This document shows positions 4,844-62,514 of a stretch of DNA of 64,000 nt, one piece after another; position 1 is the first letter of the stretch, and every line of letters starts with the position of its first letter. The notes beneath the pieces are model-generated. The model searched no databases. It was not told where the DNA came from and saw only the letters and a program-made list of their open reading frames with translations. The DNA lies in the NCBI GenBank assembly GCA_050874785.1, contig JBNMLJ010000002.1:37278-101277 (forward strand), read 5' to 3'. This stretch comes from Lachnospira sp. (lineage in GTDB: Bacteria; Bacillota; Clostridia; Lachnospirales; Lachnospiraceae). Both the position numbers and the translations under genes were made by a program.

Positions 4844-6474
4844 GATATGTATTAGATGCAGCTTCTATGAAGAATGTGGATTCTTATTCTATTAATACTC
4901 TGGGTATACCATCAGTTGTGCTTATGGAAAGAGCCGCACTCTCAGTGACAGAAGCTATTGAAAGCAAGGTTAAAGGTAATATACATACAGACATTATATG
5001 CGTATGCGGACGTGGCAATAATGGAGCAGATGGACTTGCGGTGGCAAGACAGCTTTATATTAAGGGCTACAATGTGGCTGTTTATATACTTAACTCACAC
5101 TCCTCTACCAAAGAATTTGATATACAATTGAACATAATAAAGAATCTGGGCATAGAATGTATTAATAGCCCGGATTTTTCTAAATATGGGGTTATTGTAG
5201 ATGCCTTATTTGGCAATGGTTTATCAAGAGAACTGGCAGGAGAAGCGAGGAAAGTAGTAGATACAATTAATAAATGCAGTACATCAGTGTGTTTACAGTA
5301 TACGCAGAATATGTGCAATAATGGAAGCAGGATTGTTGTGGCTGTTGACATACCATCAGGTATAAGTGCATCGACAGGTGCTGTTATGGGAACTGCGGTT
5401 AAAGCTGATATAACAGTAACTTTTGGCTTTGAAAAAATCGGACATATATTATATCCAGCAGCTTCATATTGCGGGAAAATTATAAGAAAAGATATAGGTT
5501 TTGCACAATATCCGGATATGACAAGGGACATTTTCACATATGATTATAGTGATATATCTGATATGCTTCCACCAAGAAAGCCTGACGGCAATAAAGGAAC
5601 ATTTGGCAAGGCACTTATAATAGCTGGTTCAAGGCTTTATGGAGGTGCGGCAGTATTAAGCTCAAGAGCGGCGGCGCGTATAGGAGCAGGGCTTGTAAGA
5701 ACCCTTACGCATATAAGCAATCGCACGGCAGTTATAACTGGCAATATGGAATGTATTGTTGATACATATGATACTGATGAGAAACAGGGGGATTTTGTTA
5801 ATAATACAGAGGCATTAGTGGATAAATGTGTCTGCTGGGCAGATGTTGTGTGCATAGGTCCGGGGCTGTCTATGGAAGAAAGTGCAGTAAAGCTTGTAAG
5901 AAGTGTGTCAGCAAAGAAGAATATCAAAAAGCTGTATGATGCAGATGCTCTTAATATAATCGCCAAATATAAAATTGCGCTTGATGACAATAGTGACAAT
6001 AAAGATTGTGAAGCTGGCGGCAATAGCGGTAATGCCTCATATAAAGATGATATGACGGATAAGAATGTTGTTGTTACACCACACATAGGAGAAATGTCAC
6101 GTCTTACAGGACTTGATATTGCAAAGATAAAGAATAATCCTATAGATACAGCAAGAACATATGCAAGAGAACATAATTGCATATGTGTATTAAAAGATGC
6201 AAGAACTATTGTTTCTGATGGAGAAAGAGTGTATATTAATATGTCAGGCAATGATGGAATGGCAACAGGTGGTTCAGGAGATGTGCTTTCAGGCATAATA
6301 ACAGGACTTCTGGCACAGGGACTTCCTGTATTTGAGGCTTCGGCACTTGGGGTATATATACACGGATGTGCAGGAGATGAAGCCGCCTTAAGCAACGGTA
6401 AGTATTCTATGGTTGCAGGCGATATTATTGACAATATTAAAAATGTGCTTATAAAAGCAAGAGGTGAATTATGA
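4840..6474 (+). CDS. nnr: Bifunctional NAD(P)H-hydrate repair enzyme (epimerase plus ADP-dependent dehydratase)
   Basis: The N-terminal YjeF-N part contains GRGNNGADGL. The C-terminal carbohydrate-kinase part contains GGSGDVLSGII. Confidence 0.85.
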   Translation: MRYVLDAASMKNVDSYSINTLGIPSVVLMERAALSVTEAIESKVKGNIHTDIICVCGRGNNGADGLAVARQLYIKGYNVAVYILNSHSSTKEFDIQLNIIKNLGIECINSPDFSKYGVIVDALFGNGLSRELAGEARKVVDTINKCSTSVCLQYTQNMCNNGSRIVVAVDIPSGISASTGAVMGTAVKADITVTFGFEKIGHILYPAASYCGKIIRKDIGFAQYPDMTRDIFTYDYSDISDMLPPRKPDGNKGTFGKALIIAGSRLYGGAAVLSSRAAARIGAGLVRTLTHISNRTAVITGNMECIVDTYDTDEKQGDFVNNTEALVDKCVCWADVVCIGPGLSMEESAVKLVRSVSAKKNIKKLYDADALNIIAKYKIALDDNSDNKDCEAGGNSGNASYKDDMTDKNVVVTPHIGEMSRLTGLDIAKIKNNPIDTARTYAREHNCICVLKDARTIVSDGERVYINMSGNDGMATGGSGDVLSGIITGLLAQGLPVFEASALGVYIHGCAGDEAALSNGKYSMVAGDIIDNIKNVLIKARGEL

Positions 6475-15705: not shown

Positions 15706-16761
15706 ATGAGGTATCCACATTTTCTTGACTGTAATGGAAATATAGGCTTCGTTGCACCATCATTTGGCTGTGCAACGGAGCCTTATATTACAGGTTTTAA
15801 AAAGGCACAGGAAAGATTTAAAAATATGGGCTATGGAATAGTCAATGGTCCTAATGTATATGAGGCAAATGGAATTGGAATAAGCAATACACCAGAGCTT
15901 TGCGGACAGGAGCTTACTGATATGTACACATCTGACCAGTCTGATGTGTTGATATCCTGCGGCGGTGGTGAGCTTATGTGTGAAATTCTTGGTTATGTTG
16001 ACTGGGATAAGATTGTTAAAGCTAAACCTAAGTGGTTTATGGGATATTCTGACAATACGAATTTTACATTTCTTCTTAATACAATAGCTGATACAGCAAG
16101 CATATATGGACCTTGTGCGGCGGCATTTGGCGCAGACCAGCTTCATAATTCACAGCTTGATGCAATAAGTGTGCTGACAGGAGAAAAGCTTAATATAAGC
16201 GGTTATGATATGTGGGAAAAGGAGTCTTTAAAGACAGAGGACAATCCTACACCAGCGTACAACCTTACTGAGAAAAAGGTGCTTACAGCCTATATAGGAG
16301 ATAGGAAGCTTGAGAATAATTCAGAAAGCTTTAATAATATAAAGGTATCAGGCAGGCTTGTAGGTGGCTGTATGGACTGTCTTGTCAACCTTTTAGGAAC
16401 TAAATACGATAAAGTTAAGGAATTTAACAGCAAATACAGTGATGACGGTATTATATGGTTTCTTGAAAGCTGCGACCTTAATGTATTTTCAATAAGAAGG
16501 GCTATGTGGCAGATGGACAATGCAGGCTGGTTTAAAAATGTTAAGGCATTTGTAATTGGAAGACCACTTGTATACGGACAGGAAATGATGGGACTTGACC
16601 AGTACAGTGCCATTATTAAAACAGCAGGAAGATACAATGTCCCAGTAATTATGGATGTGGATCTGGGACATCTTCCACCAGCAATGCCTGTAATAAGCGG
16701 TGCATATGCAGAAGTTTCTGTTAAAGATGATAATATACATTTTTCATATAAGTTAAAGTAA
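15706..16761 (+). CDS. LD-carboxypeptidase (peptidase S66, LdcA/MccF family)
   Basis: Contains IGFVAPSF, MGYSDNTNFTFLL (the nucleophile Ser region) and DVDLGHLPP (the His region). Confidence 0.85.
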   Translation: MRYPHFLDCNGNIGFVAPSFGCATEPYITGFKKAQERFKNMGYGIVNGPNVYEANGIGISNTPELCGQELTDMYTSDQSDVLISCGGGELMCEILGYVDWDKIVKAKPKWFMGYSDNTNFTFLLNTIADTASIYGPCAAAFGADQLHNSQLDAISVLTGEKLNISGYDMWEKESLKTEDNPTPAYNLTEKKVLTAYIGDRKLENNSESFNNIKVSGRLVGGCMDCLVNLLGTKYDKVKEFNSKYSDDGIIWFLESCDLNVFSIRRAMWQMDNAGWFKNVKAFVIGRPLVYGQEMMGLDQYSAIIKTAGRYNVPVIMDVDLGHLPPAMPVISGAYAEVSVKDDNIHFSYKLK

Positions 16762-16878
16762 TATATAAGAATGTAAAGAGTTAAGATATCTTGCAAATGT
16801 ATGGAATATACTGTAAAATAAATAAGATTAAGCGTTAAATATATAAGTATATACTTCGCGGATAAAGGAGGATTTATA

Positions 16879-18144
16879 ATGGGAATGACAATGACACAGA
16901 AGATTCTTGCGGCTCACGCAGGTCTTTCTGAAGTTAAAGCAGGACAATTAATTGAGGCGGACTTAGACCTCGTACTTGGTAATGATATTACATCTCCAGT
17001 TGCCATTCATGAAATGGATAAGATGACTGTTAAGACAGTATTTGATAAGGATAAGATTGCACTTGTTCCAGATCATTTTGTACCTAATAAGGATATTAAG
17101 TCAGCAGAGCACTGCAAATGCGTAAGAGAATTCGCAGCAAAGCACGATATTACTAACTACTTTGAAGTAGGACAGATGGGTATTGAGCACGCACTTTTAC
17201 CAGAGCAGGGACTTACAGTAGCTGGCGATGTTATTATCGGTGCTGATTCACATACTTGTACATATGGTGCACTTGGTGCATTCTCAACAGGTGTAGGTTC
17301 AACAGATATGGCTGCAGGTATGGCAACAGGCAAGGCATGGTTTAAAGTACCATCAGCTATTAAGTTCAATCTTACAGGAAAGCTTAACCCTTGGGTAAGC
17401 GGTAAAGATGTAATTCTTCATATTATCGGAATGATAGGTGTTGACGGAGCTCTTTATAAGTCTATGGAATTTGCTGGTCCGGGAGTATCTACACTTACTA
17501 TGGATGATAGATTTACTATTGCCAATATGGCTATAGAAGCAGGTGGAAAGAACGGAATATTCCCTGTTGATGATCTTGCAAGAGAGTATATGAAGGAACA
17601 TTCTAAGAGACCATTTGTTGAATATACAGCAGATGACGATGCAGAATACGATCAGGTAATTGATATTGACCTTAGCACAATTAAGTCAACAGTAGCATTC
17701 CCACATCTTCCAGAGAATACACACACAGTTGACTCTATAGATGATATCAAGATTGATCAGGTAGTCATCGGTTCATGTACTAATGGACGTATTGATGATT
17801 TAAGATGTGCCGCTAAGATATTAGAAGGCAGAAAGGTAGCAAAGGGCTTAAGAGTAATCGTTATCCCAGCTACACAGAAGATATATATGCAGGCTATAGA
17901 AGAAGGTCTTGTACAGACATTTATTAAGGCAGGAGCAGTAGTCAGCACACCAACCTGCGGACCATGTCTTGGTGGATATATGGGTATCCTTGCAGAAGGC
18001 GAGAGGTGTGTATCAACAACTAACAGAAACTTTGTTGGACGTATGGGACACGTTGATTCAGAAATATATCTTGCAAGCCCTGCTGTTGCAGCAGCAAGTG
18101 CAGTTACAGGCAAGATAAGCCAGCCATCTGACCTTGGTTTATAA
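16879..18144 (+). CDS. leuC: 3-isopropylmalate dehydratase large subunit
   Basis: [37 protein letters not shown] and CGPCLG match the aconitase-family Fe-S ligand motifs. Confidence 0.95.
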
Positions 18145-18231
18145 TATTGTAATTAAGACACTGAAATATTAGAACATACATAATTATTATGAATTATAAA
18201 TGTGTACGAATACACAGGAAATGAGGAGTAT

Positions 18232-18717
18232 ATGAAAGCAGAAGGAAGAGTTTTTAAATTCGGCGATAATGTAGATACAGATGTTATCATTCCTGCAAGA
18301 TATCTTAATTCTTCAGACCCAGCAGAGCTTGCTACTCACTGTATGGAAGATATCGATAAGGATTTTGTGAAAAATGTTAATAAAGGCGACATAATTGTTG
18401 CTAATAAGAACTTTGGATGTGGTTCATCAAGAGAGCACGCACCTATAGCTATTAAGGCAGCAGGTGTAAGCTGTGTTATTGCAGAGACATTTGCAAGAAT
18501 ATTCTACAGAAATTCAATTAACATCGGACTTCCTATTATAGAATGTCCAGAAGCAGCTAAGGCTATCAATGCAGGTGATGATGTAGCTATCGACTTTGAC
18601 AGCGGCGTTATCACAGACAAGACAACAGGACAGACATTCCAGGGACAGGCATTCCCAGAATTTATGCAGAAAATCATAAAGGCTGAGGGACTTGTGAATT
18701 ATATCAATAATAAATAA
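18232..18717 (+). CDS. leuD: 3-isopropylmalate dehydratase small subunit
   Basis: Contains [15 protein letters not shown] and [12 protein letters not shown]. The ATG at 18232 follows GAGGAG. Confidence 0.9.
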
Positions 18718-18782
18718 AATGCATTGCGCACCGGAGGCTGCTTAACGGACAATGACTCTATTGGCTTTTTGGCAGGACGGAC

Positions 18783-18937
18783 GAAATACAACAAAATAGC
18801 GGCTATATATCAACATCAGGCACGCTCTCGCTACTCTCAAACGCAGCTGATACTAAGGTGCTAAAGGACAGCACCTAAGTACCGGCGTTTTCAAAGTACC
18901 TGATTAACGATATATAGCCGCTATTTTGTTGTATTTC
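18783..18937 (+). repeat. Long rod-like hairpin element, copy 1 (29-bp perfect basal stem plus conserved core)
   Basis: GAAATACAACAAAATAGCGGCTATATATC (18783-18811) is the exact reverse complement of 18909-18937. The core is nearly identical to the reverse complement of 19394-19486. Confidence 0.85.
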
Positions 18938-19368
18938 TGGGTGCTGGTAGAAGATAGATGTAGATTGTTTAGTGGTAAGAGCAATCTGTATGTTCTATGA
19001 TATGTAATTGTCTATAAGATAGATGCATATAGTTTAGTGGCAAGCGCTCGTTGCGCATTGTATGTTGGGCGGGTATAGGTGTAGACGTGGGAATATAGAA
19101 TATATTCTATATTCTGTATGAATTGGGTTCTGACCTCCTAGGTTGAAGGATAGTTAATGGCTGCTGATAATAGTTTACAGTATATAAACTTGTAGATTAG
19201 CTGGTCATAAAATGAAATTATAATACAGAAAATATAGAAATAAAAATAACAGATATAACACAATTAAAGTGGTTGAAATAATTGCAATGTTGTTATAACT
19301 GTTATGTCTGTTATTTATTGGGAAGCTAAGTGAATAAGATAAATACCGTTTAAATGAATAGACACCCA

Positions 19369-19510
19369 GCGGGCGGAATAGCCAATATATCAAAAGTCAG
19401 GTACTTTGAAAACGCCGGTACTTAGGCGGTGTCCTTTACCGCCTTAGTATCCGCTGCGTTTGAGAGTAGCGAGAGCGTGCCTGACGTTGATATATTGGTA
19501 TTCCGCCCGC
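19369..19510 (-). repeat. Long rod-like hairpin element, copy 2 (inverted relative to copy 1, with a different basal stem)
   Basis: GCGGGCGGAATAGCCAATATATCAA (19369-19393) pairs with TTGATATATTGGTATTCCGCCCGC (19487-19510), leaving one bulged G. The core matches copy 1 apart from pairing-preserving changes. Confidence 0.85.
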
Positions 19511-19511
19511 G

Positions 19512-19568
19512 TCCGTTGTCAATTAAAATATCCGTTGTCAATTAAAATATCCGTTGTCAATTAAATTT
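19512..19568. repeat. Three tandem copies of the 19-bp unit TCCGTTGTCAATTAAAATA
   Basis: Units lie at 19512-19530, 19531-19549 and 19550-19568; the last ends ..AAATTT. A partial fourth copy, AATTGTCAATTA, lies at 19579-19590 over the AP2 gene stop codon. Confidence 0.9.
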
Positions 19569-19588: not shown

Positions 19589-20416
19589 TTATTTCCCATT
19601 TTCCGCCAGCCCCTTAACATACTCAATCACCCTCTTGGAAATCTTCACACTATTATAAGTAGCCGCATAAGTAATATGCGATATATCCTCAATATAATTT
19701 CTCGTATAACTCACCGGAAACACCGGCTCTAACATATCAGCCACCTTATTATAAGCGATAGCCGCCTCATATTCTGCCCCATACGTACCTATTATAAAAT
19801 CCCCATTAATGTGAATTCTGCTCTGGAACATTATACGTCCGTTTTTTTCAATCTGGCTCACGCCATTATATTTATTGACAACACACACATTTTCATATCT
19901 GAAATCGTGTTCGTCATTATTCCTGAAAATGTAATCTTTTCCCTTAACTGAATGACTGCGTATTCCAAATCTTGATAAAATGCTTGTCTGCATACCATAA
20001 TCATTTACAAAATAATAACCGCCACGGCTCATAATTGTGTGGTGCGAATAATAGAAAAGGTCATCAATGGAAAATATAAGGGTATTCCCCGGCTCAAGAA
20101 AATACAGAAATGCCTTGTCGCACAGGTATATAGGTGTTTTAATATATATGCCATTGTCACGGAAATTAATAAGGCTTATGAACTTAGAATAAGGAAAATT
20201 AATATGACATTCGGCATAAGATGAAGTATGAAGGTCAATATCAACATAATATACATCAGGCTTTAAGAGTATATCACAAGCAGTACAATAAGCCTGTGAG
20301 GCTGTATTTTCATCATCATAGCTTCCAATGCTTATATGTTTATTCTTATATGTTATTGAAACCCTGTAGTATACAGAGCCGTCTTTTTTGCTGGTCTTGT
20401 AAACACCTTTAGCCAA
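19589..20416 (-). CDS. Putative DNA-binding protein with two AP2-like domains
   Basis: N-terminus: KGVYKTSKKDGSVYYRVSITYKNKHISIGSYDDENTASQAY. C-terminus: YNGVSQIEKNGRIMFQSRIHINGDFIIGTYGAEYEAAIAYN. Both fit the bacterial/phage AP2 pattern (GV..W/YR....G..I.LG.F....A..AY). TTG start after AAAGGAG. Confidence 0.55.
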   Translation of the reverse strand: MAKGVYKTSKKDGSVYYRVSITYKNKHISIGSYDDENTASQAYCTACDILLKPDVYYVDIDLHTSSYAECHINFPYSKFISLINFRDNGIYIKTPIYLCDKAFLYFLEPGNTLIFSIDDLFYYSHHTIMSRGGYYFVNDYGMQTSILSRFGIRSHSVKGKDYIFRNNDEHDFRYENVCVVNKYNGVSQIEKNGRIMFQSRIHINGDFIIGTYGAEYEAAIAYNKVADMLEPVFPVSYTRNYIEDISHITYAATYNSVKISKRVIEYVKGLAENGK

Positions 20417-62009: not shown

Positions 62010-62396
62010 GTGAGTAGTACAGATGATCGCGGCTGCAAGTGTCGAAAGACCGCAGGTGAGGAAAGTCCGGGCTTCGCAGGGCAGGATGCCGGATAACGTC
62101 CGGTGGAGGTGACTCCAAGGCTAGTGCAACAGAAATATACCGCCAGTGCTTAACACTTAGTGTTAAGTCTATTGGTAAGGGTGGAAAGGCAGTGTAAGAG
62201 ACTACCGTGGTATTGGTAACAATACTGGCTATGTAAACCCCATTCGAAGCAAGACCAAATATAAAGCGATACGGCTGCCCGTCGTGCTTTTAGGTAGGTT
62301 GCTTGAGCCTGCTGGTAACAGCAGGTCTAGATAGATGATCATCAGTAGTCAGGTCAAAGCCTGACTGGACATAACCCGGCTTATAGTACTGCTCAT
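62010..62396 (+). ncRNA. rnpB: RNase P RNA (bacterial type A-like)
   Basis: GAGGAAAGTCCGGGC forms the 5' half of P4 and ACATAACCCGGCTTA the 3' half. GGTAAGGGTGGAAAGG is the conserved internal module. The P1 stem pairs GAGTAGTAC (62012-62020) with GTACTGCTC (62386-62394), and a T tract follows. Confidence 0.93.
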
Positions 62397-62514
62397 ATTT
62401 TTTTATTTAATAGGAAATTCCAATAGAATTCCATATTAAGTAAAAGGCACTATGTGCTGGTGATACGAACTCGCGTGAAGCTGTAGTTTGTCGCAAGCGA
62501 CAGCACCCGGTGCG

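Follow-up and report, generated by a model that had tools for sequence, protein, structure and literature searches.

Inverted hairpins in Lachnospira rogosae belong to a widespread, apparently uncatalogued family of non-coding elements with a fixed core and free stems

What kind of entity keeps one folded interior at two places in a bacterial chromosome, in opposite orientations, on stems that are unrelated in sequence? The question is posed by a stretch of 64,000 nucleotides of chromosomal DNA of Lachnospira, [Lactobacillus] rogosae (contig JBNMLJ010000002.1, positions 37,278 to 101,277; hereafter the window), in which two inverted hairpins, copy 1 and copy 2 (Table 1), lie within an 871-bp spacer separating convergent leuD-like and AP2-like genes. 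An earlier note, made by reading the window by itself, favoured a structured RNA or a single-stranded DNA (ssDNA) hairpin over a classic miniature inverted-repeat transposable element (MITE). Its description of the two copies is borne out: both are present where it placed them, with the sequence it gave; in element orientation each is preceded by ACGGAC and followed by TGGGTG; the basal stems are unrelated and each is self-complementary (29/29 bp in copy 1, 24 bp plus one bulge in copy 2); between copy 1 (GGTGCT/AGCACC) and copy 2 (GGCGGT/ACCGCC) the apical stem shows two double changes that are compensatory (T-A to C-G and C-G to G-C); and no credible open reading frame (ORF) lies between the copies, the longest being a low-complexity one of 62 aa. 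We report here that these hairpins belong to a family of non-coding elements that is widespread among Clostridia of the gut and rumen and apparently uncatalogued.

The two copies share a 111-nt core, seen as an inverted repeat (18805-18915 and 19385-19495) that is 91% complementary, and a 32-mer from this core occurs twice in the window against an expectation of zero. Both fold into rods (-74.9 kcal/mol for copy 1 and -76.9 kcal/mol for copy 2, with z-scores of -8.9 and -8.6) that none of 200 shuffled sequences equalled. A covariance model, R1, recovers copy 1 with 95.9 bits (E 1e-24) and copy 2 with 101.1 bits (E 3e-26) and nothing further across the 64-kb window, where the next match scores 18 bits.

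Searches for further copies revealed a large family, so that the rogosae hairpins are not a chance pair. The first scan covered one genome per species with the exact 18-mer GTACCGGCGTTTTCAAAG and returned 95 stretches; 59 of the matches also hold the 5' half of the core, all of them in Lachnospiraceae or Clostridiales genomes. Among the matches listed, two rabbit-gut metagenome-assembled genomes (MAGs), Lapin-024 bin24 and Lapin-012 bin90, account for at least 26 and at least 22 stretches, respectively, and PUUB56 for six. The second scan covered metagenomes with the 5'-half pattern ACGCTNNCGCTN{6,8}AAACGCANCGG and returned at least 120 stretches, and about 92 of the matches listed also hold the 3' half of the core. 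Because each scan fixed one half, the invariance of the scanned half is partly by construction, although each scan does validate the other half. Together they define a family of at least about 150 relatives, 125 of them non-redundant, in host loci spanning 35-64% GC, with most contigs holding just one or two copies. An origin from plasmids or phages was considered and rejected: in blastn the entire spacer matched none of 72,556 plasmids and none of 50,697 phages, and IMG/VR yielded one true copy (L122; related loci are referred to by such L numbers) and otherwise chance matches. Nor does the element match an annotated RNA family. At the gathering threshold Rfam 15, which covers known ribozymes, gut-metagenome motifs, SRP and 6S RNA, calls only RNase P and TwoAYGGAY in the window, both away from the hairpins; at E values up to 10 the hairpin region attracts nothing but noise-level miRNA and snoRNA matches; and in eight other family loci nothing falls on the element. 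Our literature searches found no description of the hairpin element.

Alignment of 43 diverse short-form members delineates a core of about 80 nt that is asymmetric and has been kept in widely differing hosts. From 5' to 3' it runs from the variable stem P1 through helix P2, an 11-nt bulge (ACGCUYYCGCU), helices P2b and P3, an AG bulge, helix P4, an A.A segment and helix P5 to the apical loop. P2b comprises 5 bp, with a G.A mismatch at its centre in 29/43 members and A.A in 7/43 (36/43 together); P3 (AAAACGC/GCGUUUU) never varies; the AG bulge, or AA in its place, is found in 42/43 members; P4 (CGG-UAC/GUA-CCG) covaries (UA, CG); the mismatch of the ensuing U-A, A.A, A-U segment is likewise kept in 42/43; all pairs of the 4-6-bp P5 covary; and the loop has 7 nt, AAANNAC. 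Two details of the fold first drawn for the pair change: the proposed pairing of TCAGGCAC with GTACCTGA exists but includes a C.A mismatch, and what appeared to be a large internal loop is the 11-nt bulge followed by P2b, which becomes visible only through the family alignment.

The pairing withstands a covariation test across these members. Paired cells make up 80.7% of the alignment, against 34-47% with slid partners, and the covariation score of 0.498 compares with 0.170 +/- 0.009 in shuffles (0/500 reach it) and 0.10-0.16 with slid partners. Double changes are seen in 40/51 pairs overall and in 14/25 pairs of the core helix, in which 92% of cells are paired. Helices that covary stand beside bulges and purine-purine mismatches that are conserved, so the core is selected as a folded single strand; and since these strand-specific, non-palindromic features are kept, plain homogenisation of a palindrome cannot explain it. 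The structure-bearing strand is the one that the earlier note chose, this being the strand in which the bulges and purine-purine mismatches are conserved. The apex is the most plastic part: the rabbit and rumen subfamilies have longer, nested hairpins in place of P5 and its loop, and a few members have lost both.

The stems are of a different nature. They are locus-specific, forming 89 independent arm sets of 25 to more than 120 bp (median about 50 bp, mode 25-32 bp), and several exceed 100 bp while being almost perfect, as in L124, with 106/109 positions paired and a perfect run of 88 bp. Across the 89 arm sets there are 4783 Watson-Crick pairs, 88 G.T and 117 A.C. An RNA helix would be dominated by G.U among its non-canonical pairs; the lack of such an excess is therefore the signature of a DNA palindrome. 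Choosing the strand by counts of G.U versus A.C gives a mixed outcome, the stems leaning slightly to A.C, and a lean of P5 to G.T comes from one misaligned subfamily. Of the alternative first put forward, a structured RNA or an ssDNA hairpin, selection on a folded single strand is upheld, whereas a preference for RNA over DNA finds no support in stems of this kind.

The arrangement seen in rogosae, conserved inside and variable yet self-complementary outside, recurs elsewhere in the family. In PUUB56 the stem of L052 is unrelated to the stems of its five siblings (as in L052 against L030), and L147, on an unrelated and more G+C-rich contig, presents another inverted pair, whose cores are nearly identical and whose stems are unrelated, around a spacer of about 250 nt. 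The stems of L030 and L104 are homologous, about 25% diverged and still fully paired. The apical loop lies in opposite orientations in L015 and L084, as does the whole core at the orthologous loci L020 and L064, which shows flip-flop inversion between the palindrome arms. The idea that the stems are spacer-like guides against phages was discarded, as the rogosae stem sequences had only chance matches, to GC-rich phage coding DNA.

All copies are intergenic and none overlaps a gene; their orientation relative to the flanking genes is unbiased, and 12 lie in divergent promoter regions against 8 in convergent spacers. Terminal inverted repeats are conserved within subfamilies and not family-wide (89 unrelated arm sets, one core). 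The elements of the rabbit MAGs end in GGCGGnTATCTTTC, and those of PUUB56, L122, L127, L195 and L206 in (T)AACAGTTCAG, terminal repeats that are flanked by direct repeats of 6-10 bp. About nine members, both rogosae copies included, have the junction GGAC/G...C/TG. Direct repeats of at least 7 nt flank 10/117 elements, whereas the rate in mismatched controls is 1.4%; the repeats include GATAATC (L122), AAGATTCCTG (L104) and GAAAGAG (L030), and one is also clear at L177. In rogosae, TGGCAGA stands immediately outside CGGAC...TGTGTGC of copy 1, on both sides, in 10 strains. The rabbit repeat unit is an imperfect rod of about 475 nt with conserved ends and no ORF; its copies share mismatches among themselves, and no rabbit-type arms devoid of the core were found in about 400 kb. 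On both counts this subfamily resembles an ordinary MITE in its behaviour. The early judgement that the pattern fits something better than a classic MITE is only partly upheld: conserved terminal inverted repeats and flanking direct repeats do occur in some subfamilies, and the element reaches at least 20 copies per genome.

At the rogosae locus itself, the history is that of a lineage-specific insertion. The AP2-like gene occupies the same place in other Lachnospira species with or without hairpins, and in two sister species the leuD-like gene either overlaps the AP2-like one or lies 17 nt from it; since these sisters carry both genes without it, the hairpin-spacer-hairpin block must have been inserted in the rogosae lineage. 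In a further relative (L117) a plain bidirectional terminator alone marks the junction of the two genes, and in another three extra genes separate them. A gene of this kind next to the hairpins might have been part of the element, but its presence at the locus in species lacking hairpins led us to reject this. As a separate observation, the sister species L116 has at the copy 1 site (~2060-2230) a single long hairpin with ACGGAC and TGGGGT junctions and a related outer stem; its interior is wholly unrelated, the family core is absent, and it too displays the GGAC/G junction.

Among strains of rogosae, both hairpins are present in 10/10 syntenic assemblies in identical order and orientation, and the two copies are now fixed in the species. 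Relative to the window, the hairpins are 97-99% identical between strains (97-98% for copy 1 and 97-99% for copy 2 in 10 other strains) and the neighbouring genes 94-99%, as against 77-86% for the 431-nt spacer, in which two or three haplotypes form a mosaic. In the copy 1 stem, where the window has the pair A18793-T18927, nine strains show A.C and one shows G-C; most other strains have a perfect copy 2 stem. At position 18848 the window's copy 1 has T where 10/10 other strains have G; this is a family-invariant position (the G of CGG in P4), and the T disrupts an invariant G-C pair, which may be a sign of decay in the window's strain.

The reading we favour, tentatively and at a little less than an even chance, is that these are non-autonomous, MITE-like hairpin elements, in which the core would be a cis-acting site folded as a single strand and the stem a DNA palindrome that needs only to pair. 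A protein acting in trans would recognise the folded core, most likely as an ssDNA hairpin, and move the element; we infer mobility through a single-stranded intermediate. A DNA process would make or keep the stem symmetrical, be it templated correction or insertion into the apex of a palindrome or MITE already in place. Two copies would then have landed in inverted orientation in the rogosae spacer between the convergent leuD-like and AP2-like genes. For the occurrence of one core within unrelated stems, capture by several MITEs, insertion at hairpin apices and local inverted duplication are all possibilities.

Several points weigh against this reading. Copy 2 and most members have no target-site duplication. 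No transposase-like ORF or other gene recurs within 3-4 kb of about 150 copies: the neighbours expected of such an element by the earlier note (a Y1/HUH transposase, a reverse transcriptase or TnpB) do not recur, the AP2-like gene is a resident, and the genes found near copies are only common paralogues (ABC ATPases and permeases, histidine kinases). A tblastn search with an IS200 TnpA query, a weak test, gave no match to the window or to any of about 240 loci. No clean pair of filled and empty sites was recovered, the spacer being replaced rather than cleanly empty between L161 and L205, so that the insertion boundaries are tentative. Both rogosae copies are conserved like coding DNA and the spacer between them is not, and conservation above that of the spacer would also fit a host function. 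Conservation of the core across such different hosts is unusual for a MITE, and the sequence data accommodate an ssDNA and an RNA nature of the core alike.

Comparison with known elements places the family close to, and apart from, several of them. MITEs normally keep their ends and lose their middle, and ERIC has been described with a conserved central inverted repeat. Like the Correia/NEMIS, ERIC/IRU, YPAL, EFAR and RUP MITEs, the hairpin elements are non-coding, 150-500 nt long, intergenic, found in either orientation and folded into rods; both have few to dozens of copies per genome and no internal transposase, and some hairpin subfamilies have terminal inverted repeats and flanking direct repeats of 6-10 bp. 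In contrast to those MITEs, the family fixes its centre and frees its ends, with the same core in at least three different backbones; moreover, this core is common to hosts of 35-64% GC instead of being lineage-specific, and target-site duplications are mostly lacking.

The attC sites of integrons are ssDNA hairpins recognised by structure, with conserved extrahelical bases, the boxes R'' and R' (RYYYAAC/GTTRRRY) at the base and a variable middle. Conserved unpaired bases and a variable part are features of the hairpin family too, but here the layout is reversed, with the centre conserved; RYYYAAC/GTTRRRY is absent from the rogosae hairpin bases, and the rogosae copies are inverted and flank no ORF cassettes or cassette array. 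Single-strand origins of the ssoA type are long, orientation-specific ssDNA hairpins with little shared sequence beyond small motifs, carried on plasmids or integrative and conjugative elements. The hairpin family likewise consists of long, orientation-specific hairpins that share little but conserved motifs, whereas its copies are chromosomal and flanked by housekeeping genes, with 20 or more per genome in two MAGs. From the IS200/IS605-derived PATE, with subterminal hairpins of 20-30 nt at both ends and a TnpA or TnpB gene beside related ends elsewhere in the genome, it differs in being a single long hairpin without a TnpA-like ORF near any copy. Finally, the closest parallel in concept comes from REPs (20-40 nt) and REPINs (~100 nt), palindromic intergenic repeats, sequence-conserved within a genome, that are thought to work as ssDNA hairpins mobilised in trans by a RAYT Y1 transposase present in single copy (PMC3116915, PMC3337134). 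They resemble the hairpin family in forming inverted doublets around a spacer (~250 and 431 nt in its two inverted pairs) and, by analogy only, in an unpaired motif at the hairpin foot, GTAG in REPs and GGAC in a subset of about nine members. The likeness ends there: the hairpin elements are 140-600 nt long with unique stems and not short GTAG hairpins, and no RAYT was detected in any fetched locus, though the tblastn test was a weak one.

The chief rival, possible but rather unlikely, is a structured non-coding RNA acting in trans or from a 3' untranslated region. The core would be a protein-binding scaffold or small ribozyme and the stem a processing stalk, for example for RNase III, with secondary spread producing the high copy numbers of some genomes. 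RNA tertiary motifs typically combine features seen here: strong covariation (P2b, P4 and P5), an A-rich loop, purines conserved though unpaired, and G.A and A.A mismatches; the maintenance of the core in hosts of such varied GC content, the one or two copies on most contigs, the modal stem length and the coding-like conservation between strains point the same way, as do the positions of the rogosae copies, 65 and 78 nt downstream of co-oriented genes, with L161, L181 and L230 similar. The stems, however, show no G.U excess, and some are longer than any RNA role would need. No conserved promoter was found, a simple terminator scan calls neither hairpin, copies show no overall bias in orientation to the flanking genes, L020 and L064 hold the core in opposite directions, and P5 and the apical loop are replaced or deleted in many members.

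We regard as doubtful a more radical departure, in which the core would be a new structured ssDNA or RNA that inserts at the apices of hairpin DNA or nucleates an inverted duplication of its own flanks, or else a new small ribozyme or protein-binding RNA carried along. Insertion at an apex or duplication of flanks would explain why one core sits atop some 90 unrelated, near-perfect palindromes and within at least three MITE backbones.

It is improbable that the hairpins are a host-domesticated module of the REP/BIME or ERIC kind, serving as a bidirectional terminator, a stabiliser of mRNA 3' ends or a site for a host DNA-binding protein. In such a module the A-tract, G+C hairpin and T-tract of P3-P5 would act as the terminator, and the invariant P3, AAAACGC...GCGUUUU(U), does present an A-tract, hairpin and U-tract readable from either side; the position is always intergenic, and the rogosae pair lies between convergent genes precisely where L117 has its ordinary bidirectional terminator. 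The U-run is nevertheless just 4-5 nt, a consensus terminator scan calls neither hairpin, divergent promoter regions harbour copies no less often than convergent spacers do, and a terminator role leaves the 11-nt bulge, the mismatches, the loop and the stems of more than 100 bp unexplained.

Very improbable, in turn, is an invertible switch, with the inverted 111-nt cores as recombination sites between which the 431-nt spacer flips to alter expression. One witness for it is a human-gut contig (L125, OHEF01001841.1, ~5020-5585) with a hybrid hairpin, made of the 5' arm of copy 2 and the P5 and 3' arm of copy 1, and a spacer inverted relative to the AP2-like gene; promoter-like hexamers are present in the spacer, and cores or apical loops are flipped elsewhere in the family (L020 versus L064, L015 versus L084). 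Yet L125, if not a real inversion in a gut population, is a chimera assembled across the 43 nt common to both copies; wherever both spacer probes could be located, in 7 NCBI/ENA assemblies and 3 further metagenome contigs, the orientation is the same; and no recombinase or invertase is found among the 10 neighbouring ORFs scanned against Pfam. As most members occur singly, inversion cannot be the function of the family.

A functionless quasi-palindrome, compensated solely by intrastrand template switching, is scarcely tenable: this caveat of the earlier note does fit the stems, which behave as DNA palindromes open to correction at the DNA level and which change in situ from A-T through A.C to G-C between strains, but it is refuted for the core, where switching would have erased the bulge, the G.A and A.A mismatches and the asymmetry that are conserved in about 125 members from unrelated hosts.

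The genes and repeats around the hairpins are listed in Table 1. The leuD-like gene, whose exact protein was recovered from many assemblies with identical synteny, has its stop codon 65 nt ahead of copy 1, and that of the AP2-like gene is 78 nt from copy 2. The latter encodes a 275-aa protein with 949 homologues, a conserved unnamed Lachnospira family; Pfam AP2 is matched, with weak similarity, by 5/18 tested homologues (best E 9e-6), and the window's own protein has no Pfam match. The intervening 431-nt spacer holds a 65-nt direct repeat (18948-18982 and 19013-19047) in 2-3 copies. A structured RNA within this spacer finds no support, with a covariation term of -2.8 and 3 double changes per 87 pairs.

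Table 1. Positions in the window of the two hairpins, their parts and the adjoining features
Feature	Coordinates	Strand	Basis or remark
Hairpin copy 1, 155 nt	18783..18937	+	sequence, repeats, fold, covariance model
Copy 1 P1	18783-18811/18909-18937	+	29/29 bp
Copy 1 P2	18816-18821/18898-18903	+	
Copy 1 11-nt bulge	18822-18832	+	
Copy 1 P2b	18833-18837/18893-18897	+	
Copy 1 P3	18839-18844/18885-18890	+	
Copy 1 AG bulge	18845-18846	+	
Copy 1 P4	18847-18853/18879-18884	+	
Copy 1 UAA/UAA with A.A	18854-18856/18876-18878	+	
Copy 1 P5	18857-18862/18870-18875	+	
Copy 1 loop AAAGGAC	18863-18869	+	
Copy 1 unpaired 5' junction ACGGAC (GGAC/G)	18777..18782	+	sequence
Copy 1 unpaired 3' junction TGGGTGC; TGTGTGC in most strains	18938..18944	+	sequence, strain comparison
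Hairpin copy 2, 142 nt, element reads on minus strand	19369..19510	-	sequence, repeats, fold, covariance model
Copy 2 P1	19510-19487/19393-19369, G19381 bulged	-	12+12 bp (19369-19380/19499-19510 and 19382-19393/19487-19498)
Copy 2 11-nt bulge	19478-19468	-	
Copy 2 P5	19443-19438/19430-19425; loop 19437-19431	-	
Copy 2 unpaired 5' junction ACGGAC (plus strand GTCCGT)	19511..19516	-	sequence
Copy 2 unpaired 3' junction TGGGTG (plus strand CACCCA)	19363..19368	-	invariant in 11 strains
AT-rich spacer between copies, 431 nt	18938..19368	.	no ORF; strain-hypervariable
leuD-like gene (aconitase small subunit), left neighbour	18232..18717	+	Pfam Aconitase_C
275-aa AP2-like hypothetical protein, right neighbour	19589..20416	-	homologues with Pfam AP2
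Three tandem 19-nt repeats TCCGTTGTCAATTAAAATA	19512..19568	+	between copy 2 and AP2-like gene stop codon

Each unit of the tandem TCCGTTGTCAATTAAAATA repeats ends in ACGGA on the minus strand, and their number varies with the strain from about 1 to 4 or more. A related species (L119) has three copies of a different 17-nt repeat, TTTATAAAGAGGCAATA, in the spacer beside its AP2-like gene. Such tandem repeats could be binding sites for the AP2-like protein or a variable-number tandem repeat. Four independent short-read Logan contigs with the AP2-like gene (L001-L004) end 53 nt past its stop codon, inside the 19-nt repeats.

Further afield, a full-length TwoAYGGAY RNA (RF01731; 22768-22935, plus strand; 115.7 bits against a gathering score of 43) occupies the thrC-hrcA spacer, 3.3 kb from the hairpins, and a bacterial RNase P class A RNA lies at 62011-62399 (plus strand, 302.6 bits). 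Between thrC and hrcA, L112 has a gene for a ToxN-family toxin of a type III toxin-antitoxin system (1587-2099), which the close relative L113 does not have. In L011, dnaK (16412-18277) is 82.6% identical to that of the window, against about 97.6% in nine other strains, which suggests import by recombination.

If the favoured reading is true, gut and rumen Clostridia host a widespread non-coding element that is absent from databases and in which the usual conservation of a MITE is reversed, the centre being fixed and the ends free. The core offers a concrete covarying motif of about 80 nt that is testable for a protein partner, for cleavage activity and for recognition as ssDNA. In practical terms, the element breaks short-read assemblies at this locus, may give rise to contigs, like L125, that are chimeric or inverted, and flags, in a common species of the human gut, a spacer that is hypervariable. 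More broadly, the family would provide a natural system of bacterial chromosomes that tolerate, and apparently renew, long and almost perfect palindromes.

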